DNA from: Obrimoposthia wandeli
Taxonomy: Eukaryota
Length of the DNA stretch: 64,000 nt
Direction: 5' to 3'
Assembly: GCA_977020255.1 (NCBI GenBank)
Contig: CDROCS010004773.1
Coordinates: 1-64,000, forward strand
Shown here: positions 5,500-61,800 of the stretch, one piece after another
How the letters are laid out: the number at the start of each line of letters is the position of its first letter
How positions within the stretch are numbered: position 1 is the first letter of the stretch
Position numbers and translations under genes: made by a program
Notes under the pieces: generated by a model
Seen by the model: the letters and a program-made list of their open reading frames with translations, nothing else
The model's database searches: none
Told to the model about the DNA's origin: nothing

Positions 5500-7433
5500 A
5501 CAATCAACCCAAATATAATCACAACAATGATGATGATGAGTGTTAGTAATGTTCATGGGAATGCAACAGGCATCAGGATTGATAGCACTTTTAGCAGCAT
5601 ACCAAAGAAGATGGGACAAAAGTATTCACTGCTTGACAGCGAAGACTGCCATCCAGAATCACAACCGTCAAAATTAGAAGTTCAAGGTGTTGAAAACTTC
5701 TTTTGTATTATCAGGATGTTGGCCATAAAGTACAAGTAGAAGTGAAAGAATATGTTTCAATCCATTCAAGTTATCACGGAATTCTATTGTGGCCATAGAA
5801 GTTTTATGTCGGAAATCACACTACCACACCGTACAAAGCACATAAGGTTTTGCCGAGAGATTGCAAAGGCATTTCGAACGGGAACGATAGAAGTGAACAA
5901 GAATTACAAACCTGAAGTAAAATTGGGAGTGAGACGATACGAAACAGTCGAGAGTCAGTTAACCGATGGAGCTAGATGGATCTTGTGACGGAGAAACAAA
6001 AAACGTGCGTGGGACCAAAGTATCTGAGATAGTAAAGGATAAAACTTACAAAATCGAATTAAAAACTTGGACCGCCAATTTTGATAAAAGACACAACTAA
6101 TGATGAAGTATCCAGAATGTAAAATGACAATACATCTTGTTTTACGAGCGAATCCACAATTGTCATGAAGTGAATCGAAGCAATGCTCTTAGTATTTTGA
6201 AAGAGATTAATAGTTTAATAAAATAAAGGATTCCTGTATAATAGAGATGGAGAAGGGTTCTGTATAATAAAGTTGGAAAAGGATTGCTAAATGAAACAAG
6301 ACCAATTCCAATGACAAAGACACTTTTCTACACTGTTAATGGCAACATCAATAGAAGAAAGGATTGATATTTATTAAAAAAGAAAACAAAGCGCGATGCC
6401 AGGAATGCTATTTTATGCCTATCCAGGAATAGTTTTGTCCAAAGAAGCAATAGCACTTGGCAGAAACCAAGCTAGGCAAACCAAAAAATGCAGCTACACA
6501 CGTATTTTAATAATAAAATTGATTTCTATTATCATAAAGGATTGATGCAAATGGAACAGATTATATCGGATGATGATCGAAAGAGATTGCCAGCTAAACA
6601 AGAGATCGTAAGAACAAAGTTAGCATTAGCTATTACGAATCAGACATGGTAGCACCATTATTACCCTTGGATGAAGGAGTATTTGCTAAAACCATGGGAG
6701 AAGTATTGTATACTTACAAGTGTAATAAAGTAGAGGTACAGTTGAGAAAAACAGATCGATGTACGAGTGAATTGGCAGTAACGTATAATTTAAAAGATCT
6801 TTTTTGTTGAACCAATCACGAGAATGTTACTTCAAAAGACACTCAACTAAAGAAATCAGCTGCTCTAATATAATGGCACCTGAATATCAGATGACGAATG
6901 ATCTATGGATAACGTTACCTGATCGGAAGCCAACGAAACCCAGCATGATAAGAATGACGAATCTTAAGGTAAATGAAATTCAAGCAGCGGTGTGAAAATA
7001 TGGAGAACGCAGGATTGTACAATGAAAAGATTTAAAAGCGGCGTGGAACGAAATAATGTTTCCAGTAAGAAGAGCCAGAGTACTTACGGAGATGGTACAT
7101 CGAAACGCATTACCGCCAGGAGCTGGATATGCGAATTTCGATATGTTATTATCGCCAAGTCATTTCAAGGAAGCAGCATCAAGGCACTTAGAAAATGTGG
7201 AAATTCTTGTTTTTGGACAATTATTTTCGGGTATCATAGGTATATATATTATAATTAAATTTGTGCAGGTAATTATGGCCCAGGTGTTGTCTACGTATAG
7301 TTTATACAGGATAACAGGAATCACCCATGCAACTTATAATTGGATGTTTTCCATTTTATATCTAATGCACTATCATCACGAGAACGAGTTGCGAGCCCTC
7401 AAGAAGGAACAACACAAACGAGAACCATGGTGA
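5500..7433 (+). pseudogene. env: Env-like fusion glycoprotein resembling chuvirus-type G (frameshifted as read)
   Basis: Fragments SLLDSEDC, EFYCGHRS, LLPLDEGVFAKTMGEVLYTYKCNKVEVQLRKTDRCTSELAVTY, EPITRML..C..MAPEY..W, then a C-terminal hydrophobic block FGQLFSGIIGIYIIIKFVQVI. Family assignment is from motif recall, not a search. Confidence 0.7.
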
Positions 7434-7759
7434 TGCGAGAACCAAGAAACTATCTGAGACGACAACGACGACGATAATGATAGTCCAGGAGTATATGCAA
7501 AGATACCAGGAAAACCAAAGATTCGTTACCAGACAAGGAAGAAGTGGCGTTAAACCTATCCCATCAATGAAGGAACTAAGGAGGAGGAGAAGGAAAGAAG
7601 TTCAAGAGAGGAAAAGCATCGCAATACATAAAGATGATAGGAGAAGGCCTAAAAGAGTGAGCTACAGTGAAATTCCACAAGCAAGAGGAAAAAGACAAAA
7701 AAGATAATTCCAGAAGAATTCTGAAGTCTAGGATATCAAATGAGAATCAGGTAATGCTC

Positions 7760-8085
7760 CACCACAAGTAGCAGTAACATTGAACGGAAGAGAATACCTT
7801 GCCGAAGTTGATACCGGATCTGCAGTATCAGTACTGAGTAAAGAAATCTTCTCATCAAAAGAATTAAGAAGTATGTCTAGAAAACAGACATTTGTTAACG
7901 TGAATGGTACAGATGTAGTGTCGGAAGGAACACTGAAATGTTCATTGAATATCGATGGAAGAAACATTGCAGTTAAATGCTAGAATATTCACAGATTGCG
8001 GAAGTCAGTCATGATTGGGATGGACGTAATACGAATGTTTGAAGGAATAATTATACTACCAAACAACAAGAGTTATAAAGAATGA
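7760..8085 (+). pseudogene. Retropepsin-like aspartic protease 1
   Basis: VTLNGREYLAEVDTGSAVSVL...VNVNG. After one in-frame TAG (7981-7983) the frame continues NIHRLRKSVMIGMDVI (xIGxD motif). Confidence 0.8.
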
Positions 8086-8259
8086 CAGTTCAAAGTGAGA
8101 GAGATAAAAATGTTGAGAGGACCCATAGTCGAAAAAGGAAAAATGCACTACGTTCCGTATGGGAGGTTCAATACCCAGACAGAAAACAGGAAGCGCTAGT
8201 AAAGTCGATACTTCACTACAAAAATGTAAATTTCGGACCACAAGCTACGACGAGGAGAA

Positions 8260-9320
8260 AATAACATATGTGAATTTGTCAGAAAAAGATCCCATGAGAT
8301 TCGAGAGAAAGAGACGAAATATATTAGAACAGTACTATTCAAAGGAATGGCACGTAAAATGGCAAGATCAGGTTTAGAAATGTTAAACGCGACAAGTAGT
8401 TATGGTCATGAGGAAGTAGTACGATGCGTATGGTGTAGAGTAAAGTTCAGAGAATGGGAAAAGAATGAAAAAGCAATGAGACGTCATAAAAGAGATGCAC
8501 CAAATTGTCCATTTCTTTTGAAACTGAAAACGTCAAACGTACCAGAAATCCAAACAGGGAAAAGCACCCGATTTCGATTACAGTGACAGGGATTCCAAAG
8601 GAGAATCAGCTCTAATAACAGGAAGAGTAATAACGAATAGTCAATTGAAGATATATTCGAAGTTATGCGAGAAGTGAACGAATGTGACGAACAATATCGA
8701 GAAGTAACTTTCGAAGATCCAAGACTTAAAAAAATTGGCAAAAAGGGACTTTTTGCTATAAAAAAGGATGGTAAAGACGTAATTAAATGCCACAAGTGTA
8801 AAAAAGAACGAATTATCGACAGATATACTCTTGAGCTACCTAAATTTTACATCATGAATTTTTGCGAATTTTGTACTTTTTAAAAACAAAATAAAGCAAA
8901 AAAGAACAGAAAACAGAATGTATAATCGAATACCAAAATCACACGAAAAGAGATTTTGGCTCAACAAGACACACCGGTAGTGTCATTCGTGAGAAAAGGT
9001 TATATCCAAAAGAAGCAGAAAGAATCAGAGAATTGGTAGAATTAAAAAATAAAAACTACGCGAAACGGATACGGATCGATTTTTGAATTACTGCGAGATA
9101 AAGATGACAGTACAATTGAAACAAAAGAGAAGAGTACATAAATGAATTAGAATACGTACTAGAAAAGATCCGGAATGCGCAGTTTGCATGGTCAACAAAA
9201 TAGAAGTTGCCTTTCTACCATGCGGACATGTAAGAACATGTCGGAGATGTGCGAAATGAAATGGTATCATGTCCAATTTGTCGAAGAATAATAGATCGAC
9301 AAGTGAGAAACATTAGATTT
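8260..9320 (+). pseudogene. Inhibitor of apoptosis (BIR + degenerate BIR + C3HC4 RING)
   Basis: ORF 8347-8586 has the canonical BIR spacing C-x2-C-x16-H-x6-C (CVWC...H KRDAPN C). 8665-8883 has R.VTF...GLF..D.IKCHKC. 9175-9290 gives CAVCMVNKIEVAFLPCGHVRTCRRCA//CPICRRII. Confidence 0.85.
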
Positions 9321-9384
9321 CACTATCCAAACAAAGGGAAGTGGACTGACAGAGTGTAATAATTCGATAAATACAATATACCAT

Positions 9385-10176
9385 ATGGGAAACATAAATG
9401 GAGCACAGCGACCAGCAGCTATCATTAGAGTAAATAATTTAAGAGTAAAAGCCTTAATTGATACAGGTGCTGTAGCTTCGATAGTAAGTGAAGACTGTTT
9501 GACAGAGGAACAGAAACGAACAATGGCAGAACCAGATGAATTCTTGGTATCGGTCAATGGAGACCCTGTAAAAGTGACGGGAATATTACCATGTACATTT
9601 ATAATTGGACGTAATACGATCACTATACCAGTTAGAATCATGAAAGAATGTCCTGAACCTACAATTTTAGGAATGGATGTATTATCACAACTCAAAGGGA
9701 TAAGTATTGATTTACAAGATCCAAGATTGAAGGATAGCACATCAAACAGACAAATAAACCAAATTGATGTAATTATAGAGAATCCTATAAAAATCGGTAA
9801 AAGATCACAATTTCTCATTCAAGGTCACACATTATCAGAAGATAAAGGACCAGTTGTGTTCGAACCATCACGAGATTTCATAGAGAAATACGAATTACCA
9901 GTTGTGAGTACAGTATGCCTGATCGAAAACCACAAAATACCAGTTAGACTGATGAATACAACCAACAATGACATCCTATTATACAGAGGAATGAGGTTGG
10001 GAAAGATAGTACAAATGGAGAATCCCACCGTGTGTGCTATGAAACTCGATAAAGATACGAATGATTACGAAGAAATAGTAATCCAATCAGAAAGACTGAC
10101 AACTAGAGAAAAGAAACAATTACTTGATCTAATACATAAATTTCCGAAAGTAATTGCAAAAATCCATATGACATAG
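9385..10176 (+). CDS. pol: Pol N-terminus: retropepsin 2 plus spacer
   Basis: ALIDTGAVASIV and PTILGMDVL motifs. Confidence 0.9.
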   Translation: MGNINGAQRPAAIIRVNNLRVKALIDTGAVASIVSEDCLTEEQKRTMAEPDEFLVSVNGDPVKVTGILPCTFIIGRNTITIPVRIMKECPEPTILGMDVLSQLKGISIDLQDPRLKDSTSNRQINQIDVIIENPIKIGKRSQFLIQGHTLSEDKGPVVFEPSRDFIEKYELPVVSTVCLIENHKIPVRLMNTTNNDILLYRGMRLGKIVQMENPTVCAMKLDKDTNDYEEIVIQSERLTTREKKQLLDLIHKFPKVIAKIHMT

Positions 10177-10199
10177 GAGAAACACCTGTCATAAAACAT

Positions 10200-10970
10200 A
10201 CAATACCACTGACAGAAGACAAAGTAGTCAGAAGAAGACCATATCGAGTACCATTACAATTACAAGATGAAGTAAAAGTCAGATCGAAGATATGTCTAAA
10301 ACAGAGTAATTAGACCGAGTTTTCGCCATTCTCAGCACCTGTGGTGTTGGTAAAAAAGAAGGATGGGAAAATGAGATTCTGTATAGATTTCAGAGAACTG
10401 AACAAGATCACAAGAAAAGATGTGTATCCATTACTAGAATCGAAGAGATGCTCGATAAATTGGGTAATTCAGATTATTTACGACATTGGATTTGCAGAGT
10501 GGATACTGGCAAATCGAGATAGAGGAAGAGGATAAACACAAAACAGCCTTTTCCTGCGGAGATGGATTGTACGAATGCGAAAAGATGCCATTCGGACTGA
10601 CAGGAGCTCCAGCAACATTTCAGCGTTGCATGAATTTTGTACTCGCATCGTGTGCAAACACGATGGTTTATATTGATGACATAATAATATTTTCGAAAAC
10701 GTTCGAAGAACATTTAAAAAATCTTGAAGTTGTATTTAAAAAAGACTGGAAAACGCTAAATTAAAAGTTAAACCTACAAAATGCGAATGGGCTAAAGAGC
10801 GAGTAACATTTTTAGGACATATAGTATCGAAAGAAGGCATTCGACCTGATCCAGCAAAGATCGAGAAGTAAAAGCATTTAGCGCCAAAGACTGTTAAGGA
10901 GATACAGAGTTTTTGAGGTCTTGCGAATTATTATAGACGATTTGTTGAACATTTTTCAGATATAGCAACA
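10200..10970 (+). pseudogene. pol: Reverse transcriptase (frameshifted as read)
   Basis: [55 protein letters not shown]. Confidence 0.95.
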
Positions 10971-10973
10971 CCA

Positions 10974-11711
10974 TTGAGAAAGTTGACGAGAAAAGATGAG
11001 AAGTTCATATGGGGAGAAGAAGCCCAACAAGCGTTCGAGCATTTAAAAGAAAGACTGATAAAAGCACCAATATTAGCGTTTCCAGATATAAACCGACAAT
11101 TCATACTCATGACAGATGCAAGTAACTATGCTGTAGGAGCAGTATTGGGACAAGAGGATGACGAAGGAAGAGAACACGTCATCGCGTATGCGAGTAGAGG
11201 ATTAAACAGAGCCGAAAGAGGATACTCTGTTATCGAAAAGGAATGTCTAGCCATAGTGTATTCATGTAGACAGTACAGACACTACTTGCTAGGACAAAAA
11301 GTATTCCTATATACAGATCACAAACCACTACAGTTCTTGTATAAACATAGAGATGAGATGAGTAGATTAAACAGATGGTTCCTAAAATTAGCCGAATTCG
11401 ATCTAGAAATCCGTTATAGAACCGGAAAGTCGAACGGCAACGCAGATTGTTTATCGAGATTGACAAATGTAGACGAAAAAGGAAACATAATTCCAGAAGA
11501 AGATGAAACCAATGACCAAAAAGGAGAAGCAAATCTACTGACGATTTTGCTAAAGACGGGTAAAATAGACAAAGAGATCATCAAAGAACAGAAAGAAGAT
11601 GAAGAACTGAGTCTAATCAAAGAATTGTTGGTGAAAGGAGATCTAAACGATGAAATGACGAAAAAATACTCGATAAAAGAAGGAATCTTGTATATAATGT
11701 CGGAAAGATAG
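10974..11711 (+). CDS. pol: RT connection + Ty3/Gypsy RNase H
   Basis: LMTDASNYAVGAVL, YSVIEKECLAIV, YTDHKPL, NGNADCLSR. Confidence 0.95.
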   Translation: MRKLTRKDEKFIWGEEAQQAFEHLKERLIKAPILAFPDINRQFILMTDASNYAVGAVLGQEDDEGREHVIAYASRGLNRAERGYSVIEKECLAIVYSCRQYRHYLLGQKVFLYTDHKPLQFLYKHRDEMSRLNRWFLKLAEFDLEIRYRTGKSNGNADCLSRLTNVDEKGNIIPEEDETNDQKGEANLLTILLKTGKIDKEIIKEQKEDEELSLIKELLVKGDLNDEMTKKYSIKEGILYIMSER

Positions 11712-11731
11712 TAGTAGTAATTCCGAAGTCA

Positions 11732-13264
11732 TTGAAAACAGCAGTGATGATCCAGTATCACGACGGAACACTAGGAGGACATCTGTCAGGGCGAAAGACA
11801 ATAGCCAGAATCAAAGAGAAGTACCATTGGGATGGTATGGAAGACGACATAAAACAATGGTGTAAACAATGTAAAGTATGTTTAACCAGAAAAGACACCG
11901 GAACTCGTACTAAAGTTCCACTGAAACCAATGCCAGTTCCCTTGGCACCAATGGAATTCACAGCGATGGATATATTGGGACCATTGAGAGAATCAAGTAA
12001 AGGAAACAAGTACGTCATAGTATTTACGGATTACATGACGAGATGGGTAGAAGCATATCCCATGCAGAACCAGAAAGCTGAAACAATAGCGCAAATCTTA
12101 GTGGAAGAGATAATATTTCGATACGGAGTGCCCAGAAAGTTATTAACGGATCAAGGTAAGAACTTCACTGGAGAAGTCATAAAAGCAGTATCGAAGATAT
12201 TCGGAATCATGAAGTTACAAACTTCACCATATCACCCACAGACAGATGGTCTGGTAGAAAGGTTTAATAAAACTTTATGTATGATGGTACAATCCTATTG
12301 CTCAGACAAGCAAGAGGATTGGGATAAATATTTACCTTCATGTCTATATGCTTACAGGAATTCAGTTCGAGAGGCGACGGGTCACACACCATTCTATCTG
12401 ATGTATCTCAGACAGAACAATATGCCGATGGATCTGGAGTGGACCGAGCCAACATCTCAGTATCTAGAAACTGAACAATACATTGTCGTCATGAAGGAAA
12501 GATTACAAGATGCTTGGACCAAAGCCGGATTGAAGTTGAAATTCAATCAAGAAGGTTACAAGGAACAATACGACAAAAAAGCAAAACCACATGAATTTAG
12601 AGTCGGAGATCAAGTGATGATATTTTATCCAGTCATCGAACCAGGTCTATCGTTTAAACTTCATAGACCATACAAAGGACCATACAAGGTGATCCAGACA
12701 ACTTCAACAAATTTGAAAGTAATCAACGAAGAGAATCGGAACAAGGAACCGATGATTGTACATGCAAATCGATGCAAATTAGTACCAAATAAAGATAATG
12801 CGTCACGATATGAGTTAAGATCACAGAAATCGAAATCGAATACCAATACCATTAAACTTACACGAATGGTAAGTGATCGGAACTACATAAACATGATGAC
12901 GAGTGGTAGCGAGGAAAAACCAGCAAGAATTGGTATGCTCAGAATGAAGTACCAAGAGGAAAAGGAAGTAATCCGACACATCGCACCACAAGAGATATTA
13001 GAAGAAGACGAAGAGATAATAGTCGTTTTCGAAAAAACACAACCAACAGATGTAGCTAAAGAAGTCATTGTGAAAGATGCACTAACAAACGAATTTCTGT
13101 GCGAACTTAGAGTGTCATACTATGACGGGAATACACTAGTCGCAGCGCTTTATCAAAATTCCAATGTGTTTACGACTGAGAAAGTGATAATCGAAATCAC
13201 ATTGACACCAAACATAGTTGCATGGCAGAACTATGACAGTACTGAAGCAGGACTAGCCAGTTAG
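11732..13264 (+). CDS. pol: Integrase (HHCC, DDE core, GPY) with C-terminal extension
   Basis: YHDGTLGGH...CKQC, AMDILGPL, LLTDQGKNF, TDGLVERFN, PYKGPYKV. Confidence 0.95.
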   Translation: MKTAVMIQYHDGTLGGHLSGRKTIARIKEKYHWDGMEDDIKQWCKQCKVCLTRKDTGTRTKVPLKPMPVPLAPMEFTAMDILGPLRESSKGNKYVIVFTDYMTRWVEAYPMQNQKAETIAQILVEEIIFRYGVPRKLLTDQGKNFTGEVIKAVSKIFGIMKLQTSPYHPQTDGLVERFNKTLCMMVQSYCSDKQEDWDKYLPSCLYAYRNSVREATGHTPFYLMYLRQNNMPMDLEWTEPTSQYLETEQYIVVMKERLQDAWTKAGLKLKFNQEGYKEQYDKKAKPHEFRVGDQVMIFYPVIEPGLSFKLHRPYKGPYKVIQTTSTNLKVINEENRNKEPMIVHANRCKLVPNKDNASRYELRSQKSKSNTNTIKLTRMVSDRNYINMMTSGSEEKPARIGMLRMKYQEEKEVIRHIAPQEILEEDEEIIVVFEKTQPTDVAKEVIVKDALTNEFLCELRVSYYDGNTLVAALYQNSNVFTTEKVIIEITLTPNIVAWQNYDSTEAGLAS

Positions 13265-13342
13265 GAAGAGAAGGAACCGGCCGGTGGTCACATACTGCAT
13301 GGTACACCAAAAAGACTCAAACAAGAATACCACGATGTAATA

Positions 13343-15211
13343 ATGGTATTACGTAATTCACATGGGAAAAGAGATATCATGAGAGTCCATTTAATCGACG
13401 CTGACACTGAAAAGATAATTTGTCAGATGGACACCAAATACTTTGATGGAAAGACAATTGTATGTTGTATACCAGAATCTCACCGGTTAGACACAGATCA
13501 AACGGAAGTATCTGTAAGGTTGAGCGTAATAGAAGGATTTCATTCGCTAAACCATCCGGAAGTGACTAACAATAAAATCATCAAAGCAACGGCAGAGTTA
13601 CGCATTGACAGCGGATACCGGAAGTGGGAAGCTAAAAATAAAAAACCACAAAGAATCAATATGATCCGAGAACAAGTGACCAACTCAATCCAGCCAAAAT
13701 ATCATGCTGAAATAGTATCATCCGCGCCAAGTGTAATTACATCGATAAACGACGAAATTATAATTTTACTAAAAAATCGATGGCCGTCATCAACTGAGAT
13801 ACGAGTAAACTTAATTAATTATGCGAAGACACCGATATCTAAGCTGAATGTTACCTATTTCGATGGATTGTCCATCATGGGTAAATTAGAAACAATTGTC
13901 ATGTGCTATGGAGCACAGTTCCAAGTTGAGATACTTAAAGACAGTGTAATACCGTATCCAATTCACAAATACGAAGGGGAAATCAATCCAATTATTCTAA
14001 CCCCTTCATTAATTTCAGTTCAGACAGACATACCAGAATACCCTTCGAGCGAGTCTAGTGAAGACAGCGAACCGGAAAGTAACGATACAGAATCAACAGA
14101 ATCCGAAGATAACATAATAGAGCGATTCGGAAGAACCATGGAGGTTGAATTCGCTAAAGAGAACAGAAAAAGACAAAACATAGAATTCGTGAAACAGAAT
14201 ATACAAGAAAGACGAATTAAATCTGCAGAAGAGACCGAGTCGGAAGAAGACTCAACAAAGGAACAGACATCAGAGACAAAGATGAATATCTCTCCAGCAA
14301 TACGAATGCTGAGAGGAAAGAAACTGGCAAAACTATCTAACATCGACGAACAGATAGAGAAGAGATTAGAAAGACTAAAACTTGAAGAGTCAGAATTAAT
14401 GCCACCAATGAGTGAGATCATTCCAGGTAAGTTATACCTCGGAAATGTGGAGGATGCAACAGATGAAAAGAAACTGTTGGAACAAGGGATAACATACGTG
14501 ATCAACGTTACAATGAATCACAAATCACAATATCAGACGATCAGAGCCATGACATTAAGAGTAAAAGACTCAATGGATGCTAATCTTCTCGAATGGTTCG
14601 TAGAAACAAACGAAATACTTCACAGAGAACTCCGGAACCAAGGAAAAGTGTTGGTACATTGTCAGAAAGGAATTTCTCGATCAGCAACTCTAGTATTAGC
14701 ATACCTAATAAAGACTAGACGAATGCAGGTACTAGAAGCGCTAAAATACCTACAGGAGAGAAGAAGTATTGCAAACCCAAATCTTAATTTTTTGGGACAG
14801 TTGGCAAATTACCAACTTCTGTTGCAAGAACAAAGACGGATGGACGACATTCCTGAGGATCCAAAGGAAAAGAATTTCCTCCAAGCATTATCATTGACCG
14901 GGTTATTCTTAGCCGGAGTCGACAAAATTACACAGATAATGCCAAAGGTATTTTTATGTCATCCAGGAGATATAGATACTGCTGGATTAAAGTTCCACAG
15001 TATCAACCGAGTAATCAACATTGTTGAAGTCGGAAACGAAATAATCAGTCTGTGTCAAAATACTGAAGATGACACCACTCGATACATACACGCTTCCAAT
15101 CGAGAAATAAACGATGCACAACAACATCTGACGAAATTGACTCAAACCATCCAAGCTGAAGTCACAGAAGGAAACGGCGTTCTGATATATCAGAAAAAGG
15201 TACGATGTTAG
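13343..15211 (+). CDS. Accessory polyprotein: repeated ~90-aa domains, acidic linker, dual-specificity phosphatase, start of a pseudophosphatase
   Basis: SEIIPGKLYLGN...GITYVINVT...VLVHCQKGISRSATLVLAYL...PNLNFLGQL (CX5R intact, Cys at 14660). A second DUSP-like unit starts ITQIMPKVFL. Same frame as the integrase ORF, separated by one TAG. Confidence 0.9.
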   Translation: MVLRNSHGKRDIMRVHLIDADTEKIICQMDTKYFDGKTIVCCIPESHRLDTDQTEVSVRLSVIEGFHSLNHPEVTNNKIIKATAELRIDSGYRKWEAKNKKPQRINMIREQVTNSIQPKYHAEIVSSAPSVITSINDEIIILLKNRWPSSTEIRVNLINYAKTPISKLNVTYFDGLSIMGKLETIVMCYGAQFQVEILKDSVIPYPIHKYEGEINPIILTPSLISVQTDIPEYPSSESSEDSEPESNDTESTESEDNIIERFGRTMEVEFAKENRKRQNIEFVKQNIQERRIKSAEETESEEDSTKEQTSETKMNISPAIRMLRGKKLAKLSNIDEQIEKRLERLKLEESELMPPMSEIIPGKLYLGNVEDATDEKKLLEQGITYVINVTMNHKSQYQTIRAMTLRVKDSMDANLLEWFVETNEILHRELRNQGKVLVHCQKGISRSATLVLAYLIKTRRMQVLEALKYLQERRSIANPNLNFLGQLANYQLLLQEQRRMDDIPEDPKEKNFLQALSLTGLFLAGVDKITQIMPKVFLCHPGDIDTAGLKFHSINRVINIVEVGNEIISLCQNTEDDTTRYIHASNREINDAQQHLTKLTQTIQAEVTEGNGVLIYQKKVRC

Positions 15212-15378
15212 CGCCTACCATAGGTGTATCCTTGTTGGTAGAGTACCATGGTCACACGCCAGAAGAAGCGATGGTCTACATCAAACAGAATAGACCAAAT
15301 ACGGAATTCAAACCGTTACTCGTTCGAGAAATAGAAAAAATACACCGAAAAGAGGAAGCAACAACGAGAAACAAATGA
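14920..15378 (+). pseudogene. Second, catalytically dead DUSP-like domain
   Basis: After a 1-nt shift at ~15198 it reads GVLIYQK-GTMLAPTIGVSLLVEYHGHTPEEAMVYIKQNRPN, with no Cys or Arg in the P-loop position. Confidence 0.65.
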
Positions 15379-15391
15379 AGCTACAACAACA

Positions 15392-16021
15392 GTGCCCAGC
15401 TTTCAATACCAAAGATTGTTAGCGATAGGCTTGTTAAGTTGTCTAATGCCAATAACGGGAGCACAAGAAATAGGCTCCAACCACGGAAATAGTTCCTGGT
15501 TCAACGAAATCCACAACTACACCATACAGTACCATACGCCGGCACTGATGATGCTATTAGTGTTGTTAGGACTAATTGATGTGTGGATCATCCGAAAATG
15601 TCTTCGATCTATGAGAACCGACAGTAAAAGATTTCAGTTTGTAAAGATGAAAAGACCAAATGGACCAACGAACAAAGTGCTTGTGTATCTAGACGAAAGG
15701 ATCGAGGACAACATAGTAAATGAAGCGATATTTTACCCACAAAACAGAATACTGAATCAATTTCGAATAGATTACGAAGCTGACCGACAGCGCACACTTG
15801 ACCGAATATCAACAACATTCGCCGGATGCAAGCGAAGAAAACGAGTTGTAAAGGAAATACAAAAAGATGCTGATACAAAAGGACCAACGTATATATTCGA
15901 CGGCGATGTCATCAAAACACGTGAGTATGGAAGTAAGAGAGTAATAATTGAAACGATGGAAGGACATAAAACATGCTTGTCCGCCAAAAATGGATTCGGA
16001 AAGTTGACGATACAAAGGTAA
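15392..16021 (+). CDS. Putative membrane protein of unknown function (no ATG; possibly part of the polyprotein)
   Basis: 209-codon open frame with a signal-like segment LLAIGLLSCLMPITGA and a TM-like segment ALMMLLVLLGLIDVWII. Confidence 0.5.
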   Translation: MPSFQYQRLLAIGLLSCLMPITGAQEIGSNHGNSSWFNEIHNYTIQYHTPALMMLLVLLGLIDVWIIRKCLRSMRTDSKRFQFVKMKRPNGPTNKVLVYLDERIEDNIVNEAIFYPQNRILNQFRIDYEADRQRTLDRISTTFAGCKRRKRVVKEIQKDADTKGPTYIFDGDVIKTREYGSKRVIIETMEGHKTCLSAKNGFGKLTIQR

Positions 16022-16061
16022 CCCGGTACAGTTAATTATCGGAAGAAATGGAATCGAGGAG

Positions 16062-18080
16062 ATGTCAAAACAACGACAGACAACAAAACGATCCAATCAG
16101 AAACAGATATCTCTCAAACGATTGATAATTAAAACCCTTTGCAAAAGGTCAGTCAAGGCCCTGTGCACCGTTGCACAAGGATTGATCTATGGAGTAGTAA
16201 TTGGATTGGTACTGCAAGCCATGCCAACCAGTAAAGCCGAATTGATGACACTATCTGAATATAATTTACATTTGAGAAATCTAGACAACACCCTAGAAAT
16301 AATCAAGACATCCCACAGTAAAGCCGTGATGATCATGTGTGTAAAAGGATGTCCAGGACGAATGTGTATAGTCCCAGCGACCGAAATGATAACACTTAAT
16401 GGACATTATGGAATTAGTGTTGTCACATGTGAAGACTACATATTTGGACAAACTAAAATAGTGCTTCTCAGTGACATGTCCAACCAAAGTGCACACAAAT
16501 TTAAAATATTAACCATCAAGAGTAAAGGAATACCAGCAGTACGTTACGGTATTCTAGAATTGGTTAATCCGATACTCGCACTGATCATTGGATTTATAAT
16601 ATTAATATTACTCATCTTGTTTTGTTGTACAAAGATAGAGTTGAGATCAAAAAAGAAACGTCATGATCTCGCAAGACGAACAGGTCAAATGAATTTACAA
16701 AAATTCAACACAAGTATACCAAGACCACCCTTCCTAGATGAACCAGCACCAGAGTACCAGCCAACGATATATGAACATATCGAGGAAAGACCGTACTATA
16801 TGAGTAATTTGAGTTGTTTCATTGAAGTTCCTGAGTTTAGGAATCGAACGATCATAGGAATCATGCTGATCATACAAATTACCACTACCAAGGCTAGTTA
16901 TGTGATCATGATCAGTAAATGGAGACAAGATGTAATACGGGCGTTATACATAGAAATCCCTTTATTAAAAACAAATCACGTAGTAGACATTCATCTACAG
17001 ACGTCAGCAACCGACAATATCGATCAGAAATTGTATGTCATCCGACAGGTCAGAATAAAGATCGACCAAAATACACCCGATTACAATTTAATATTATTGT
17101 ATCATGAAAAAGTGTTATACCTACGGATAACAATATCGAAGAGGAAGCGGATTATCCAAAGTATCCGAACAAAGTCATTAATATTGCCTAGAGATGAACG
17201 CATCTGGAAAATTGTCGACAGGATTATGATCACAGGTAGACGACGTAAAGCCGTATGGAATTCCGTTAGGATATTTTTCAGATTGCTAGAAACTGACAAA
17301 GTAACAGTAATGTGTCCCAACCCAGATGGCGGAATCAGATTCGAAATCCAAAGCCAAAAGTTAGTACCACATTTTAACACGGAATGTCTGTGTAATCGAA
17401 TTTCCAGTAATACTACAGAGACCTCGACCATAATCATGATAATAACAGGTGAAATATTCTACATAACTCTAAGATACCAGAACCGTCGATTTCGTAGATC
17501 CGGTATAAGTATCAAACCCAGGAAAATCATTCCCAAAAGGCCAATCCTAGTCAGAAAGAAGGCAAAAGTAAACGAAAGTAAACGCCATTCCAAAAAACCG
17601 ACAGTGATCAGAACAAAGACAGAAGCGAAAGAAAAAGAGCTCAATCCCAGAAACCAAAGTACAATTATTAAGAGGACAAGAGTGAGGGGAACGATCCCAC
17701 TAGATCCCAAACATCATTTCCAATCCAAAATAATAATACCTGTTCCATCAGAAACAAAACACCCAAATCCACGAATTTTTAGAAAATCGGACATAATACA
17801 TGGAAACCGATCAAAACCCATGGAAATGTCATTTGAACCGACAAACAACAAAATGAAGTATGATTATAAATCATCAGACAGCGGAATAACAACGGTCAAT
17901 GCCCTAATTGGAATGGCCGTAGTGTCAACAACAGTGGTTCTATTGACAGTCGTGTGCGTAAAAGGCAGTCAAGTATGCCCAAGAATACGACGAAAATGCG
18001 AAGGATTGCGATGCTGTGACACACCCATCATGGAGGAAGTGGAATTGCGACCCTTACCTCCGCCTTCCATCAAGATATGA
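16062..18080 (+). CDS. 672-aa multi-membrane-segment protein of unknown function
   Basis: Long intact ORF with four hydrophobic segments (GLIYGVVIGLVLQA, ILALIIGFIILILLILFCC, IIGIMLIIQITTTKA, ALIGMAVVSTTVVLLTVVCV). Confidence 0.7.
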   Translation: MSKQRQTTKRSNQKQISLKRLIIKTLCKRSVKALCTVAQGLIYGVVIGLVLQAMPTSKAELMTLSEYNLHLRNLDNTLEIIKTSHSKAVMIMCVKGCPGRMCIVPATEMITLNGHYGISVVTCEDYIFGQTKIVLLSDMSNQSAHKFKILTIKSKGIPAVRYGILELVNPILALIIGFIILILLILFCCTKIELRSKKKRHDLARRTGQMNLQKFNTSIPRPPFLDEPAPEYQPTIYEHIEERPYYMSNLSCFIEVPEFRNRTIIGIMLIIQITTTKASYVIMISKWRQDVIRALYIEIPLLKTNHVVDIHLQTSATDNIDQKLYVIRQVRIKIDQNTPDYNLILLYHEKVLYLRITISKRKRIIQSIRTKSLILPRDERIWKIVDRIMITGRRRKAVWNSVRIFFRLLETDKVTVMCPNPDGGIRFEIQSQKLVPHFNTECLCNRISSNTTETSTIIMIITGEIFYITLRYQNRRFRRSGISIKPRKIIPKRPILVRKKAKVNESKRHSKKPTVIRTKTEAKEKELNPRNQSTIIKRTRVRGTIPLDPKHHFQSKIIIPVPSETKHPNPRIFRKSDIIHGNRSKPMEMSFEPTNNKMKYDYKSSDSGITTVNALIGMAVVSTTVVLLTVVCVKGSQVCPRIRRKCEGLRCCDTPIMEEVELRPLPPPSIKI

Positions 18081-18203
18081 TGAGTCAGAGGAGGTTGTAG
18101 ATAAATTAGTGTGTGAAATATGTAGAAATATCTAGAAGCGATTGTACAAATAGTAGAAATATATAAAACTCATGTAGAAATTAATTCTCATCATGTATTT
18201 AGA

Positions 18204-18503
18204 ATGTCCGAAGAATGCCCAATATGTTTGGAAGATCTAACCGAACGAAGAACAAGACCCGAAACCTGCAACCATTTACACCACGAGGAATGTTTATCGA
18301 CATGGATCAGAACTTATGGACAGTTCGGACATCCAACATACCCTTGTTGCCCTGTATGCAGAAGACAATTCGCAAGATTCATCATGTTAGAACCCAACCA
18401 AGAGGATGTATATGTACAGGTGGTATTCTGTTGGAAGAATTTCGGAGAGTGTTGGTGTTATTACTGTTTGTCAGAACGACAAAATCCGACCACTTTTGTG
18501 TAA
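18204..18503 (+). CDS. RING-H2 protein 1
   Basis: CPIC...CNHLHHEEC...W...CPVCR. Confidence 0.85.
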   Translation: MSEECPICLEDLTERRTRPETCNHLHHEECLSTWIRTYGQFGHPTYPCCPVCRRQFARFIMLEPNQEDVYVQVVFCWKNFGECWCYYCLSERQNPTTFV

Positions 18504-18563
18504 ACATCACACAACCACCAGTCCTCAATCGAGCCCAAATTCAACATCAACCCTCTCACAGTA

Positions 18564-18869
18564 ATGTCTGGAGAATGTTCCATCTGCTACGAGAGCATCG
18601 TGGACTTCTACACCAAGCCCAACAACTGCGACCACCTCTTCCACGTCGAATGCCTCGAGACGTGGATCCCCATCGCAAACAGCAACAATCCCCTCGACTT
18701 CCCAACCTGCCCGATGTGCAGAGCGACCTTCTCAGTACACTACGTGTACAACCAGGACAGCCTCCAAGCAGTGATACCCATCGTACACTGCTGGAAAACC
18801 ATCTGCGATTGCTGGTGCTCGTTCTGCGTGGAGGAGCGAAGCACAGGCCAGCCCAATTCCCAACAATAA
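18564..18869 (+). CDS. RING-H2 protein 2
   Basis: CSIC...CDHLFHVECLETW...CPMCR. Confidence 0.85.
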   Translation: MSGECSICYESIVDFYTKPNNCDHLFHVECLETWIPIANSNNPLDFPTCPMCRATFSVHYVYNQDSLQAVIPIVHCWKTICDCWCSFCVEERSTGQPNSQQ

Positions 18870-19208
18870 TCGAAGGTAACTTTCTGACTTGAACGTGACA
18901 TCATGAACTACCCTGTGTATCGCATACCGCGATAAATTAGCTACCATAATTGTAATCATAATTATATAATCTTGTGAACTGTAAATTGACCATTACCATT
19001 TTTATGTATGATGTTTAACTGAAATTGTAATTATTATACTGAAATTCTAAAAAGACAATTTTTATGCTTAGTGTGAATGCGTAAACATGCCTAAAATCGG
19101 AACAAAACTCGGTAGGATTAAATAACTAAGGATTCGTTTTGAAATAAAATTTAAATTAACGATGAGAACGGTGAACCCCAAATTGAAAGGAGTTATTTTC
19201 TTGTGCAG

Positions 19209-19739
19209 ATGAAGTGTTCTGTATGCATGGAGAAAATTTGGGCGGCATCAGCATCCCCTGTCGGCTGCTGTCACAAATTTCACGAGGCGTGCCTCTATTT
19301 GTGGGCCAAGGCTCGACCCCCTGGCCAAATCACGTGCCCACTGTGCCGGACACCCTTTGGCAAATGGACGCTCCAGTGCCGTGGACGATCCAAGGGCACC
19401 CGATCACCTGCCAGCTGCATTGGTGGCATACACTGCCAGTGCTACGTGTGTCTCGCACGCCGGCGCGACACACAATTGGGCATCCGCGAGCGATGGCGGT
19501 CTAGCCGTGACTGCCATTCATGGTTCCAGGCCAGACGTCTATGGATGGAGAACCATGCGCTGAACGGGCAATATTTCGACCTGTTTGTCGAGAGCCCACA
19601 CCTAACCCGGAGCCAGCAACTACACCTCTACAACGGGGACAGTCCGTCCTTTCCCGATCTACCCCTGGAGCAGGTCCTGCGTTACCTGACCAGTCGGAAT
19701 CAGCCGACAATTACAATCGATCTAACTAACGACAATTGA
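19209..19739 (+). CDS. RING-H2 protein 3 with C-terminal SIM-like motif
   Basis: ATG at 19209. CSVC...CCHKFHEACLYLW...CPLCR, ending TITIDLTNDN. The C-terminal half is conserved in copy B. Confidence 0.88.
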   Translation: MKCSVCMEKIWAASASPVGCCHKFHEACLYLWAKARPPGQITCPLCRTPFGKWTLQCRGRSKGTRSPASCIGGIHCQCYVCLARRRDTQLGIRERWRSSRDCHSWFQARRLWMENHALNGQYFDLFVESPHLTRSQQLHLYNGDSPSFPDLPLEQVLRYLTSRNQPTITIDLTNDN

Positions 19740-20564
19740 TAACGTTAAATCCTTTCCTCCCTTCTTTCCTTCCTAATTCTTAATTTATTCATGTAGATTT
19801 TTTTGTGTATAAGTAATAATGTATGGTTTGAGACTTGCTCCAAATTATACATTATGATTCCCACTAAAAACTGGGGTTTTGAGAATTTTTTTTTGGGCAT
19901 GTTTGATGAGTTGAATGATTGATTTTGTAGGGATGAACCTAAAATCAACAGCCAGAGGCTTGTATAAGTAAAATCGATACGTTCCGGGGACGTAACTTTT
20001 TTGGAACCCCCGAGGTATGTTAGGTTTGAGAATTAAGAAATTAAAATATTTTAGTCGATTAAATACTAAAATAAAAATCCTTGAAAGCAAGGTTGAAAAT
20101 TAAATTAAATATTAATTTTAGATTCAAAATTGAAATTAGTGGAAGTTAGGGTAAAAATTAGGAGGACCACGAAGGTCGTGTATAGTGTAAGATATATATA
20201 AGTTAAATTAATTAACCCAAAAGTGCAACAAAACACATTAATAAAAGAAAAAGGAAACGTCAATTAAAGAACGTCAATTAAGGTAAGCACATTTTCGTGC
20301 AGTGAGTTAAAATTAATTTTCAGCTGTTCAATATTGCTGAATTCCTATAAGCCGGAAGAGCAGGAACACTCAAGAGTTGATTGACAACTCATAGCGAATA
20401 TAAAAGAGTCGCTGACGAAGTGAACACAAACCAGAACGAAAATTAGCTAGGAATCAATATCACCTGAAGTCTACGGAGCGGAATCTTGGTAAGTAGGAAT
20501 TTGGGTTGCATTTATAATCAATAATTTAGATTGCCGCATATAACTGATTAGAAGAAGCTAATTG

Positions 20565-21140
20565 TCAGTTTTAAAAGGAATAATCATCAATTGCCAGTTT
20601 AAAAGGAATAATCATCAATTGCCAGTTTAAAAGGAATAATCATCAATTTCCAGTTTAAAAGGAATAATCGTAAGTTGCCAGTTTTAAAGAATAATCGTTT
20701 ATTGTCAGTTTAAAAGGAATAATCGTAAATTTCCAGTTTTAAAGAATAATCGTTTATTGTCAGTTTAAAAAGAATAATCGTAAATTTCCAGTTTTAAAGA
20801 ATAATCGTTTATTGTCAGTTTAAAAAGAATAATCGTAAATTGCCAGTTTTAAAGAATAATCGTAAATTGACAGTTTTTAAAGAATAATCGTTTATTGTCA
20901 GTTTAAAAGGAATAATCGTAAATTGACAGTTTTTAAAGAATAATCGTTTATTGTCAGTTTAAAAGGAATAATCATCAATTGCCAGTTTAAAAGGAATAAT
21001 CGTAAATTGACAGTTTTTAAAGAATAATCGTTTATTGTCAGTTTAAAAGGAATAATCATAAATTGCCAGTTTTAAAGAATAATCGTTTATTTTCAGTTTA
21101 AAAAGAATAATCGTCAATTGCCAGTTTTAAAAGAATAATC
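20565..21140 (+). repeat. LTR-A minisatellite, ~28-bp unit
   Basis: gtttaaaaggaataatcatcaattgcca and variants. Confidence 0.9.
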
Positions 21141-21260
21141 GCCTATCGATAAACCTTCGAAGACGATCACACCAGTTCGTCAGAACTACATACGGATCCA
21201 GTACCGGATTGACGCAGTCGCAGCTAGTCGCAGCATATCGGTAAGAACACCGACTAGAGC

Positions 21261-21695
21261 ATTCATTGCCCCTAGTTGGCAATTAGGATACATTCATTAC
21301 CCCTTGTTGGTAATTCGAAATTTTAACATATTAACCAGATTCATTGTCCCTAGCTGACAATTAGGATTGCTGTCTCTTTAACCAAATCATTGTCCCTAGT
21401 TGGCAATTAGGATTGTCCATTTTATTCATTGTCCCCAGCGACAATTAGGAATTGTACCAGTTTTTCCCGTAAGATTCATTGTCCCTAGCTGACAATTCGG
21501 TTCACTCATTGTCCCTAGTTGACAATTCGGAACAAATACTCATTGTCCCTAGTTGACAATTCGGTCCACTCATTGTCCCTAGTTGACAATTCGAACCAAC
21601 ACTCATTGTCCTAGTTGACAATTCGGAGTAAGTTTTCATTGTCATCGTTGACAATTAGGTTTTTAGGAGAATCATTGTTCACAGTGGACAATTCG
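21261..21695 (+). repeat. LTR-A array of 12 palindromic ~27-nt cores with variable spacers
   Basis: tcATTGTCcctagytGACAATt(a/c)gg x12, counted by eye. Confidence 0.9.
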
Positions 21696-22249
21696 TGGTT
21701 AATATACAACAGATAGAGTTACGGATTCAAGAAGCTTTATCCACACATAAGAAGTAGAATCGAAGAAATTTAAGAGAGTTGCGTTATAGATTAACCAACC
21801 TAAGAAGAAGAATAACCCTAAAATCTCGATCACCCGAACGTAAAATCGATACGTGGTTCATCCCCACTTCTTGTAGAGACTTACAGAAGTCTTAGGAATT
21901 TTACCATACTTTTTAGAAATACGTACATAAACGTATTGTTGTGTTAGTTACGTGAATTACAAATAAACAATTTCCTACAGTAGAACAAGTTGTTTTTGCA
22001 CCCTTCAGAATAAGAGACATCAAATCAAATACCTTCAGATAGTACAAGAGATTAGGCAACCATAACACTAAGTAGGCCACGACCAACTTTAAGACCTGCT
22101 TCTAATCGAACTCACGTTGGGGCCCTCCGCACATAAGAGGATCTGTACCAAGTTTCGTAATGAAACCCCAACAGCTTAAATATTATTTTTTAGTTTGCCA
22201 AAAGACAAATATGACTCCAAAACAGTTTTCGCGGATAACTTAGCTGTTG

Positions 22250-44511: not shown

Positions 44512-46696
44512 GGTCTAGCCGCGACTGCCATTCATGGTTCCAGGCCAGACGCTTATGGATGGAGAACCATGCGCTGAACGGGCAATATTTTGACCTATTT
44601 GTCGAGAGCCCGCACCTGACCCGGAGCCAGCAACTACACCTCTACAACGGGGACAGTCCGTCCTTTCCAGACCTACCCCTGGAGCAGGTCATGCGTTACC
44701 TAACTAGTCGGAACCAGCCGACAATTACAATCGATCTTACTAACGACAATTGATAACATTACATTCTTTCCTCCCTTCTTTCCTTCCTAATTCCTTACTT
44801 ATCTATGTAGCCATTTTGTGTATAAGTAATAAATTAGTGAATATTTGAGACTCTGTCCAAATGTTCACTTTTTTAGAAAAAACCGAGTTTCTTTTAAAAG
44901 TTTTGGGCATGTTTGATGAATTGAATGACTGATTTTGTAGGGATGGACCTAAAATCAACAGCCAGAGGCTTATAAGAGTAAAATCGATACGTTCCGGGGA
45001 CGTAACTTTTTTGGAACCCCCGAGATATGTTAGATTTAGGAATTGAGAAATTATTAAAAAATTAAATAATTTATACTAAAATAAAATCCTTGAAAGCAAG
45101 GTTGAAAATTAAATATTTAAAATTAAGTTAAAAAATTAGAGGATAAAATCAGGGATAAATATTAATAGGACCACGAAGGTCGTGTGTGATGTGTAGGTAT
45201 ATATAGAAATTTATATCTAACAAAAGGGACCAAAAAAGATATAGCTCTGAAAGTCATTGCAAGAAAAGAAGATTCTAAAATTAAGAGACAATTAAAGTAC
45301 AAGAAACCAAGCCCAAGGGAAAGCAGTCGTTGTGAGTCATTGTGACCTCAGTTTGATATCGATCCAGCAAACACAAATTACGGCAGAAGGTAGATTTGGT
45401 GAAAATATCTGAAATAAGACATTTCCCTAGGATTTGCTGAGAAGGCAATATCGATTTCTCGAACAAACACCTGGACCGCTCCACGGAACTGCCAAGAAGA
45501 CAATAGTGACCCGGCCTTAGTGGACTGCAGTCAAGTAGCGACAACAGGAAAGGTAAACCTATAAATACGGTTGTGAATCTAAAAACAAAAACCAACGGCA
45601 AAAATAATAATTAAATTCAATCCAGTGCAACTCAGTCGGTCGGAAAGCGACATTGTCCAGATTCCAAGTCAAGTTTCCAGTGACTTCGCCATTACAATTA
45701 TCTCAACTCAGTCGGTCGGAAAGTGACATTGTCCAGATTCCAAGTCAAGTTTCCAGTGACTTCACCATTACAAATATCCCGATCTCAGCAGCGGACGTCA
45801 TAAACAGCAGATTAAATAGGTGAGAACGCCGCGAAAAGAAGTAAAGTTGCGTTTTCGAATAATTTCCAAATAATTGTTATTGTTTTAGCAACAAGTAAAG
45901 TTGCGTTTTCAAGTAATTGTTTAGCAACAAGTAAGTTGCGTTTTCAAATAGTTTTCAAATAATTGTTATTGTTTTAGCAACAAGTAAGTTGCGTTTTCAA
46001 ATAGTTTTCAAAGAATTATTATTGTTTTAGCAACAAGTAAGTTGCGTTTTCAAATAGTTTGCAAATAATTGTTATTGTTTTAGCAACAAGTAAGTTGCGT
46101 TTTCAAATAGTTTTCAAATAATTGTTATTGTTTTAGCAACAAGTAAAGTTGCGTTTTCAAATAATTGTTTTAGCAACAAGTAAAAGTTGAGTTTTCAATA
46201 ACTGTCTTGCCTCATTTAGTAGAGTTTTATTATTGGTATAAAATTTCAATTTCCCTCTAAAAGTAAAAGTCTGACAGTAAGGTTAAATTGATTTGGAAGT
46301 ATATAACTTGAGTTTATTTGCGAGTTAGAGGAACAACTCTAAAAACTCGATCACCCTGAACATAAAATCGATACGTGGTTCATCCCCACTTGCGTAGAGA
46401 CTTACAGAAGTCTTAGGAAGTTTTACTATACTTTTTAGAAATACGTACGTAAACGTATTGTTGTGTTTTAGTTTCGTGAGTTACCAATAAACGATTTCCT
46501 ACATTAGAACACGTTGTTTTTGAACCCTTCAGATTAAGAGACGACAAACCAAACACCTTCAGAGAAGCAATAGAGATAGGCAAACATAACACTAAGTAGG
46601 CCACGACCAACTTTAAGACCTGCTTCTATTCGAACTCACGTTGGGGCCCTCCGTACATAAGAGGATCTGTACAAGTTTCGTATAGAAACCCCAACA
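44512..46696 (+). mobile_element. Copy B: 3' fragment of the Gypsy family (RING3 C-terminus, 3' UTR, LTR 45028-46696)
   Basis: 44512-45030 is homologous to 19499-20020. LTR TGTTAGA...CCCAACA, with a different interior. Confidence 0.92.
45840..46200 (+). repeat. LTR-B 53-bp minisatellite (plus a 76-bp duplication at 45628-45775)
   Basis: agcaacaag recurs at 45976, 46029 and 46082. Confidence 0.9.
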
Positions 46697-60341: not shown

Positions 60342-61254
60342 TGCATATACTCTTTCATTTTTAATATTGTTTATATTATCATAGAAGTTTTCTTATTGAA
60401 ATGTACAATGTTAGAGCGATTGTTGATGAAATACAAAAATTAATTAATGCATATTTGGCTATAATTTTATTTATTTATGTACGATTTCTAAATTCTCGAA
60501 TAACGTGTGATCTAACCAATATTTCAATGTTATCTCTTGTTATATCATTATTTTTTAATTCTGATAAAATTTCTTTACCCCTGATTTTTCCAGAAAATAT
60601 TTCGTCGGCAAGACGATCCACTCCATTGTCTCTATTTATAGTATTGTTAGGATTGAGAATTAAGAAATTTAAATATTTTAGTCGATTAAATACTAAAATA
60701 AAAATCCTTGAAAGCAAGGTTGAAAATTAAATTAAAATATTAATTTTAGTTTTAGAATTAAAATTAGTGGAATTTAGGGTAAAAATTAGGAGGACCACGA
60801 AGGTCGTGTATTATGCGAAAATGTATAAAAGTTAAATTAATTAACCCAAAAGGGACAATTTAGAAGTAATTAAGAAAAAACGGTTAATTAAAAACGTCAA
60901 TCAAGAGACGTCAAGGTAAGCACATTGTAAGTGCAATAAGATTTATTGATTTTAGATATCAATCAAGAAACCATTCCCAACGTTATTCTCAGCTGTCCAT
61001 TGAGTGACAGATCCCCGTTCTCAGCAGTAAGCACATTTGTAAGTGAAGTGAGTTTAGTCCAATTTTCAGACTATAAGATCAGCTGTCATTGATTGACAGG
61101 ACTGCCCCTATATAAGGCAGAGTAAACTACAGAGGAAACAACAACGAAATCGACTACGAGAAATCAACTGGGCGGAGGACCAAGGTGAATTTTGGTGGTT
61201 TGGGTCAGTGTTAAAGTAATTTGTTTTTAGATCAATTGAATTAATTGAAAGTCC

Positions 61255-61800
61255 AAAAAGTCAAAATATATCTAAGTTAAAGTATATTCAAGTCAACGTA
61301 TATCCAAGTCAAAGTATATCCAAGTCAAAGTATATCCGAGTTAAAATATATCTAAGTTAAAGTATATTCAAGTCAACGTATATCCAGTCAACGTATATCC
61401 AAGTCAAAGTATATCCAAGTCAAAGTATATCCGAGTTAAAATATATTTAAGTTAAAGTATATTCAAGTCAACGTATATCCAGTCAAAATATATCTAAGTT
61501 AAAGTATATTCAAGTCAACGTATATCAAGTCAACGTATATCCAAGTCAAAGTATATCCAAGTCAAAGTATATCCAAGTCAAAATATATCTAAGTTAAAGT
61601 ATATTCAAGTCAACGTATATCCAGTCAAAATATATCTAAGTCAAAGTATATTCAAGCCAACGTATATCCAAGTCAAAGTATATCCAAGTCAAAGTATATC
61701 CGAGTCAAAATATATCTAAGTTAAAGTATATTCAAGTCAACGTATATCCAAGTCAAAGTATATCCAAGTCAAAATATATTCAAGTCAAAGTGTACTCAAG
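61255..61800 (+). repeat. LTR-C 16-bp minisatellite
   Basis: ccaagtcaaagtatat units with higher-order variants. Confidence 0.9.

Follow-up and report, generated by a model that had tools for sequence, protein, structure and literature searches.

A twelve-unit hairpin array in the LTR of a Burro-like Ty3/gypsy element of Obrimoposthia wandeli is apparently a selected RNA module

In a 64,000-nucleotide stretch of the Obrimoposthia wandeli genome (contig CDROCS010004773.1, positions 1 to 64,000; hereafter the window), the LTR of a giant env-bearing Ty3/gypsy element carries twelve consecutive copies of a short hairpin, and this array is apparently a real, selected RNA hairpin module that was previously undescribed. 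We consider it very probable that the array is a secondary structure selected in the plus-strand RNA. The array, its counterpart in a second LTR and a pair of units with a possible second fold are located as follows.

21264..21693, plus strand: twelve-unit RNA hairpin array of LTR A, with a 6-bp stem, a 6-7-nt loop and conserved flanks in each unit
21342..21409, plus strand: units 3 and 4 of that array, able to pair with themselves or with each other (from cross-compatibility and an RNAalifold cross fold)
61943-62374, plus strand: array of LTR C, twelve units collinear with those of LTR A

A preliminary description, made from the letters of this DNA, had reported twelve hairpin copies in LTR A that are collinear in LTR C, and both arrays were found with twelve units each, the one in LTR A running from the first C of unit 1 at 21264 to the end of the last unit at 21693. 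The variants named there are present as well (GCC/GGC in copy 1, ACC/GGT in copy 2, GTT/GAC in copy 12 and the copy 4 wobbles, GTC/GGC in LTR A and GCC/GGT in LTR C), and copy 3 of LTR C holds a further double change beyond them. The proposed core, ATTGTC-CCTAGYT-GACAAT, stands as a repeated stem core, but the loop varies from 5 to 7 nt (mostly 7 nt, 991/1224) and is not always CCTAGYT; likewise, the proposed spacers of 3-25 nt hold only if about 8 conserved flanking nucleotides are counted as part of the unit, the core-to-core distance in LTR A being 11-32 nt. LTR B was correctly said to be without the array, and a 53-nt tandem occupies the corresponding slot. Stem pairs 1-3 (ATT/AAT) are invariant, with 2/3672 cells deviating, and among the distinct 7-nt loops collected across lineages C1 is fixed in 106/108 and G5 in 108/108; these two loop bases never covary. 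Matches to the commonest stem class (U-A, 7-nt loop) are far above chance, with 35,127 exact matches genome-wide versus 0 for the reversed control.

The two arms of the stem change together. Stem cells were tallied in 102 arrays with 1224 units in all, 60 of these arrays having been chosen by similarity to those of LTR A or LTR C; 7156 cells are Watson-Crick, 176 are G·U, 5 are A·C and 7 fall into other classes. The states of orthologous units form a path from GTC/GAC through GTC/GGC, GCC/GGC and GCC/GGT to ACC/GGT, each step passing by way of a plus-strand wobble, and such stepwise paths were observed at orthologous units 1-4 and 7. In a set of 22 arrays, 99.8% of 1482 cells are paired; against a shuffle control that ignores kinship, the number of double-change cells is 24 versus 8.2 (0/500), while the number of pairs with a double change, 5 versus 3.8, is not significant under the same control (57/500). 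When left arms are set against their own right arms A·C occurs in 3/560, as opposed to 18-39 of about 470-520 when they are set against the right arms of neighbors, and at pair 5 a left C is found in 319/357 units with a right G and in 4/867 with a right A. Since the arms covary through plus-strand G·U states, the array units are likely selected RNA stem-loops, which is what the preliminary description had proposed for the sense transcript; within-unit covariation, the excess of G·U over A·C against a background near 1:1 and a loss of AUG confined to the plus strand (see below) all bear this out.

The asymmetry between the two kinds of single-sided change carries much of this conclusion. A·C mismatches are far from being as common as G·U: genome-wide, in counts that are inflated by lineage expansion, U·G versus C·A is 1945 to 32 at pair 5 and G·U versus A·C is 4531 to 70 at pair 4 (both in 7-nt-loop units), and left-first U·G versus right-first C·A is 123 to 32 at pair 6, that is, a ratio of about 60:1 for pairs 4-5 and of 4:1 for pair 6. 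The null expectation is 1:1, because in duplex DNA the two are mirror-image mutations in a mirror-image context, and background transitions of both kinds in non-stem columns are indeed close to it (15:18 in spacers and 24:16 downstream). Counted as independent events, there are roughly a dozen shared G·U states and one shared A·C mismatch (in a terminal unit, at 4 loci). At pairs 4-5 the wobble state is also the one in which the right arm has changed first; at pair 6 a wobble needs a left-arm change. Inheritance follows the same division: the pair 5 U·G state occurs in both LTRs of one insertion in 42/100 among the matches listed, versus 2/102 for the A·C states of pairs 4-5 (Fisher p 2e-13). 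The pair 5 C·A state, looked at in 20 of 32 loci, occurs as one such unit per locus at scattered positions. For pair 6, inspection by eye of the 100 matches listed found three LTR-like pairs sharing U·G and none sharing C·A, and the C·A cases lie on 32 different contigs, a count level with those of other mismatch classes. The presence of G·U rather than A·C states, together with their sharing between both LTRs, lies outside the predictions of paired DNA sites or of directional repair. G·U ridges have been reported for HIV RNA in the available part of a published study, and the pattern here agrees with them (PMC4161434).

The position of the array within the transcript can be approached from the distribution of AUG triplets. 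The landmarks in LTR A are these.

20195..20202, plus strand: TATA box at about LTR +185, at which the AUG-free zone starts (same position in 45 LTRs, by eye)
21240..21246, plus strand: 5'-splice-site-like G|GTRAG, a candidate donor 24 nt upstream of unit 1
21962..21967, plus strand: polyadenylation-signal-like AATAAA hexamer downstream of the array

From +190 onward, the 45 of 60 LTRs that have a recognizable start hold 20 ATG where about 1454 are expected (2 versus 168 at +190-400 and 18 versus 1286 beyond). CAT beyond +400 numbers 1246 versus 1286 expected, so that it is not depleted over most of the AUG-poor span, and the flanks of the zone hold 239 ATG versus 220. Up to the polyprotein start, one copy is free of ATG over 3397 nt, where 72 are expected, and a second over 2976 nt, where 63 are expected; 24/26 post-LTR leader stretches are likewise without ATG. 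A leader of about 3.5 kb has thus been purged of AUG, and this on the plus strand alone, and the array therefore likely lies in scanned 5' leader RNA. The start of R is predicted about 30 nt downstream of the +185 TATA; a TATA at LTR +380-470 was rejected as the transcription start, AUG loss already beginning at the +185 TATA. We infer an R of about 1.75 kb inside the leader of about 3.5 kb, which would be scanned largely unspliced, the donor-like motifs perhaps serving U1-mediated poly(A) suppression as in foamy viruses (PMC3694450). The purge (20200-22173 in the window) occurs in array and non-array LTR types, fast-changing tandem repeats included, and a leader of this length is an unusually long candidate for a scanned 5' UTR. 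The G|GTRAG motif lies 23-26 nt before unit 1 in 97/102 arrays and before the slot in 14/25 non-array LTRs, and further donor-like motifs have their GT at 20283 and 20489 in LTR A; in 2/2 copies, the interval from the LTR to the start codon shows no pyrimidine-rich acceptor. AATAAA follows the anchor motif by 110-120 nt in 57/60 LTRs. Contig cover from four runs ends at the LTR edge.

The local stems are weak (typically -3.6 kcal/mol), as would suit a leader that is scanned, and in the predicted unconstrained ensemble cross-unit pairing dominates over them. Relative to shuffled sequences, the whole array has a folding z of -2.6 on the plus strand and -4.4 on the minus strand, so the minus strand folds better, and the local median is -0.9. 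RNAalifold returned local stems for units 2, 5, 6, 7 and 11 and paired unit 3 with unit 4. The state combinations seen in 100 arrays are cross-compatible in 9/9 cases for units 3-4 versus 44/116 for other unit pairs; this hints at a possible second fold, but the ladder-like history of these units keeps it short of proof. The idea that folded arrays fill the slot in all lineages was rejected, z falling below -2 in only 4/46; arrays of other kinds in the slot show no folding (median z 0.05).

The array belongs to an env-bearing Ty3/gypsy element of about 24 kb that encodes gag, env and pol as one polyprotein and that, judged from its domains, appears to be a Burro-like giant Ty3/gypsy. Window positions 1-22173 are the element body with its 3' LTR, the coding region being broken in this copy. 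The parts of the element and the other LTRs in the window are as follows.

7026..19739, plus strand: coding region in pieces, with env-like fusion, BIR, PR, RH, IN, dual-specificity phosphatase and three RING ORFs
20018..22173, plus strand: LTR A, the 3' LTR of the element at 1-22173, bounded by TG...CA and laid out as in natural full copies
20560..21141, plus strand: 28-nt tandem in the upstream variable slot, not folded
21800..21830, plus strand: decayed remnant of an AGAG/CTCT hairpin
45028..46696, plus strand: LTR B, with AG|GTGAG at 45820 and then the 53-nt tandem (45830-46205) in the array slot
60645..62857, plus strand: LTR C, a 5' LTR with a donor-like motif at 61919
62866..62884, plus strand: primer-binding-site-like stretch after LTR C, presumably resembling tRNA-Ile

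Two natural full copies elsewhere are about 24 kb long, and both have target duplications of 4 bp as well as a primer-site-like stretch; in the window, a conserved 8-nt spacer parts the LTR end from this stretch (62858-62884). One of these two copies holds a single frame of 5487 codons in which env follows gag and precedes pol, with the domains Gag-CCHC, ubiquitin-like (a weak match, E 0.046), Monjiviricetes fusion (E 4e-94 by Pfam scan), PR, BIR, RING, PR, RT, RH and IN. Two protease domains thus flank BIR-RING in the polyprotein, and a dual-specificity phosphatase follows the integrase, and the 3' LTR is preceded by three RING ORFs in tandem (13265-15211, 18126-19739). Pfam scans over most of the element ORF found no MATH, BCL2 or ankyrin domain, and the N-terminal 421 aa have no PDB sequence match. 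Integrase relatives were found at 50-62%, with no named Burro sequence among the matches. A 28-nt LTR motif has 13,378 matches in the 1.35-Gb genome. The upstream variable slot holds a 16-nt tandem in LTR C (61258-61791) and tandems with periods of 13-76 and more in other lineages. The window also contains a eukaryotic SSU rRNA fragment (42376-42479; Rfam RF01960, 68 bits), an unrelated integrase-core fragment on the minus strand (58614-59210) and, between the LTR elements, another dispersed repeat (32585-34211 versus 47282-49484, 68-74% identity; also 37899-38068).

Only part of this family carries the array. In a sample of 90 LTRs, taken in contig order among the first 100 matches listed, 42/90 (47%) have it, with 7-19 units each, and 48/90 do not; four more of the 90 hold related units in longer tandems, and unrelated tandems fill the slot in the remainder. 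The related units keep a C-N-N-N-G-T loop and include a compensatory pair of 5-bp stems, ATTAT/ATAAT versus ATTGT/ACAAT; the sequences suggest that a single ancestral unit may have been amplified more than once. The tandem just upstream of the array differs in period from lineage to lineage, and the array stays collinear. Dozens of LTR types, with two hypervariable tandem slots that each follow a donor-like motif, share one protein set, and the proteins behind them are mostly 92-100% identical. NC is 92-99% identical to that of an array element in 15/17 non-array elements (two partial matches, 83-88%); in this comparison of proteins from array and non-array elements, four stretches had no matching element and three covered only part. 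Because only 42/90 LTRs have the array and the remainder are accompanied by near-identical Gag/Pol, the array is not an obligatory packaging signal (psi). A tree of the conserved 3' part of the LTR needs three changes for the array, two of them forced, and gag and RT trees show about six array-label changes with poor support; coevolution of Gag with the array was thus not seen. In 13 LTR pairs, with the array or without it, the two LTRs differ by 0-2 substitutions in 520 nt, and both kinds of element have therefore moved recently.

A second hairpin family, AGAG(T/C)-loop-(A/G)CTCT, occurs in 1-4 copies 260 nt upstream of the anchor motif and also shows compensatory change. It is nearly mutually exclusive with the array, being present in 36/48 non-array versus 2/42 array LTRs; in array lineages a remnant decays with mismatches (median energy -1.1, versus -5.7 in non-array LTRs). 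This suggests that the array replaced the AGAG/CTCT signal, although linkage could contribute. The loops of the two kinds of hairpin differ, and a common ligand is a guess.

The invariant stem base, loop C and G and flanks, combined with a free loop center, suggest a protein that reads each unit. We tentatively favor a multivalent docking site whose ligand is most probably the element's own Gag and which would block scanning and pass full-length RNA to packaging. Transcription would start at the +185 TATA and the leader would then be scanned, ribosomes melting the weak stems unless these are protein bound; the protein, presumably Gag, would read the stem base, loop C1 and G5 and the flanks of each unit, twelve times, and Gag, once bound, would halt scanning and direct the RNA into particles. 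The array would thereby take the place of the 1-4 AGAG/CTCT hairpins of other lineages. It could spread if there is competition in cis among LTR variants that draw on the same proteins, a multiplied Gag site conferring a cis advantage, and the 47% array share of sampled LTRs would fit this. NC prefers unpaired G, and the invariant unpaired loop G, along with the CCHC knuckle in Gag, speaks for Gag as the reader; against it, Gag does not track the array across elements. R is present at both RNA ends, and the array alone therefore cannot mark unspliced RNA. A fuller and rather doubtful version is an MS2-like natural array acting as a translation-to-packaging switch, in which a Gag hairpin has been multiplied twelvefold, the older hairpin is decaying and units 3-4 are two-state; dozens of LTR variants on one near-identical gag-env-pol machine would compete, the array lineage now making up about half of the LTRs.

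The same structural evidence also fits if the hairpins bind a host RNA-binding protein for export, stability or translation of a long intron-retaining RNA, as a swappable host-adaptation module like CTE or RxRE, which we regard as possible but less probable than docking of Gag. The proteins of the element hardly vary as the slot turns over, a position in R places the array in every transcript, and the invariant bases are sequence specific, all of which a host factor would accommodate. No host motif was identified, however, and Rfam gave no match; the other arrays of the slot are unfolded, and the mutual exclusion with the second hairpin is left unexplained. The loop motifs of U1A, Smaug, Roquin, nucleolin and Musashi were also considered and rejected, as the free loop positions do not fit them.

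It is unlikely that the array controls how U1 binds the donor-like site 24 nt upstream, and through it polyadenylation at the 5' versus the 3' LTR or splicing, perhaps with units 3-4 as the switch. The constant spacing in 97/102 arrays, the lack of an acceptor in the two copies and the two folds kept by units 3-4 would agree with such control, as would the donor upstream of AATAAA within R, an arrangement like that of foamy viruses in the available part of the published account (PMC3694450). On the other hand, about 720 nt separate the donor-like site from AATAAA, no predicted pairing links the array to the donor and other lineages have unfolded repeats in that slot.

A neutral origin, by tandem amplification plus templated quasi-palindrome repair or RNA editing in reverse transcription and with no structural selection, is largely refuted and in our estimate very improbable. 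Arrays do arise easily in the slot, and at pairs 4-5 directional template switching would also give a right-arm-first "G·U," but the left-first excess at pair 6 breaks this confound; the near invariance of pairs 1-3, C-to-U steps that are not ADAR products and the retention of the array while the adjoining tandem turns over likewise stand against it. Stems of 6 bp fall short of the length that Dicer-type processing needs, and we give still less weight to hairpins that serve as small-RNA substrates or decoys. Such a role has been proposed for the palindromes of Sirevirus LTRs, where a palindrome-rich variable region is described in the available part of the source (PMC4728375). The sequence here is conserved, unlike that of Sireviruses. 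Least probable is the alternative offered in the preliminary description, paired Sox-like CATTGT sites or sites of another dimeric DNA-binding factor in an enhancer or a gypsy-like insulator: the CATTGT half-site presumably resembles a Sox-like site, the gypsy leader has multiple Su(Hw) sites comparable to the twelve copies here and ATT/AAT is invariant, but paired DNA sites are disfavored because G·U- and A·C-type changes, mirror images in duplex DNA, are about 60-fold apart, so that strand-symmetric tolerance is not found; moreover, at pair 5 a change in the left arm comes only once the right arm has changed, and spacings of 5-8 nt are tolerated.

Retroviral psi, RxRE/RcRE and CTE are cis-acting LTR or leader stem-loops, and CsrB and the Xist A-repeat are multivalent hairpin arrays; the array differs from all of these in being without sequence likeness to them and in occurring in only about half of its family. 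Rfam returned nothing at gathering level for the array (two chance-level matches, E 0.28 and 5.5), and its two-unit pattern was found at 0 loci in metagenome and viral contigs. Among known elements the closest likeness is to Burro (GYPSM1, of dugesiid planarians), which, in the available part of its description, also has a polyprotein of about 5000 aa with Gag-CCHC, ubiquitin-like, BIR, RING and PR-RT-RH-IN, an in-frame env of mononegavirus type between gag and pol, thousands of copies and tandem repeats (PMC6431247). Burro exceeds 30 kb according to the same source, whereas the element here is about 24 kb with LTRs of 2.2-2.4 kb, has a single CCHC and a second protease domain, carries a DSP phosphatase downstream of IN as well as three RING ORFs, and gave no match to the MATH, BCL2 or ankyrin domains; the available portions of the Burro accounts mention no hairpin array (PMC6431247), and an available excerpt of another study treats Burro only as a piRNA target (PMC8532177). 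The gB-type GAG-ENV-POL errantiviruses likewise place a class III env before pol, but in separate ORFs rather than a single frame, and the part of that report available to us mentions neither stem-loops nor Burro (PMC13524379). Sirevirus LTRs contain a swappable segment that evolves fast and holds repeated palindromes, but these, as far as the available text describes them, belong to plant copia elements and are cis-regulatory DNA of nonconserved sequence, with long hairpins and siRNA hotspots (PMC4728375), whereas the units of the array are short and conserved, covary through plus-strand wobbles and lie downstream of a TATA box. An unpaired C under a short stem, fixed loop C1 and G5 and a leader position where binding could block scanning recall the IRE and the pseudotriloop hairpins of HBV epsilon, TAR and foamy viruses, as presented in the available parts of two sources (PMC8466369, PMC3884659). 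Both identities were rejected: by the same partial accounts, the IRE needs a 5-bp upper helix above C8 and an AGU triad, where the array has a 6-bp stem and free loop positions 2-4 (PMC8466369), and a pseudotriloop needs a hexaloop, a C-G cross-loop pair and G-C closing, where the array has C-G closing and 7-nt loops in 991/1224 (PMC3884659). In the literature compared, no such array is described for Burro-like or other Ty3/gypsy LTRs; the original Burro paper and its supplements lie outside this comparison and may describe LTR repeats.

The cis-acting RNA signals of Ty3/gypsy elements beyond yeast and flies are largely unknown, and the array, being short, repeated and available in thousands of natural variants, is one whose ligand can be sought directly. 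It also provides clean data on compensatory evolution, in that one genome shows complete G·U-bridged paths from Watson-Crick to Watson-Crick at orthologous hairpins (compare the available part of PMC4161434). For the element itself, the array suggests how a giant, single-ORF, env-bearing retrotransposon may handle a multi-kilobase leader, with an AUG purge and weak stems, and it suggests that in such families it is the LTR modules, not the proteins, that evolve.
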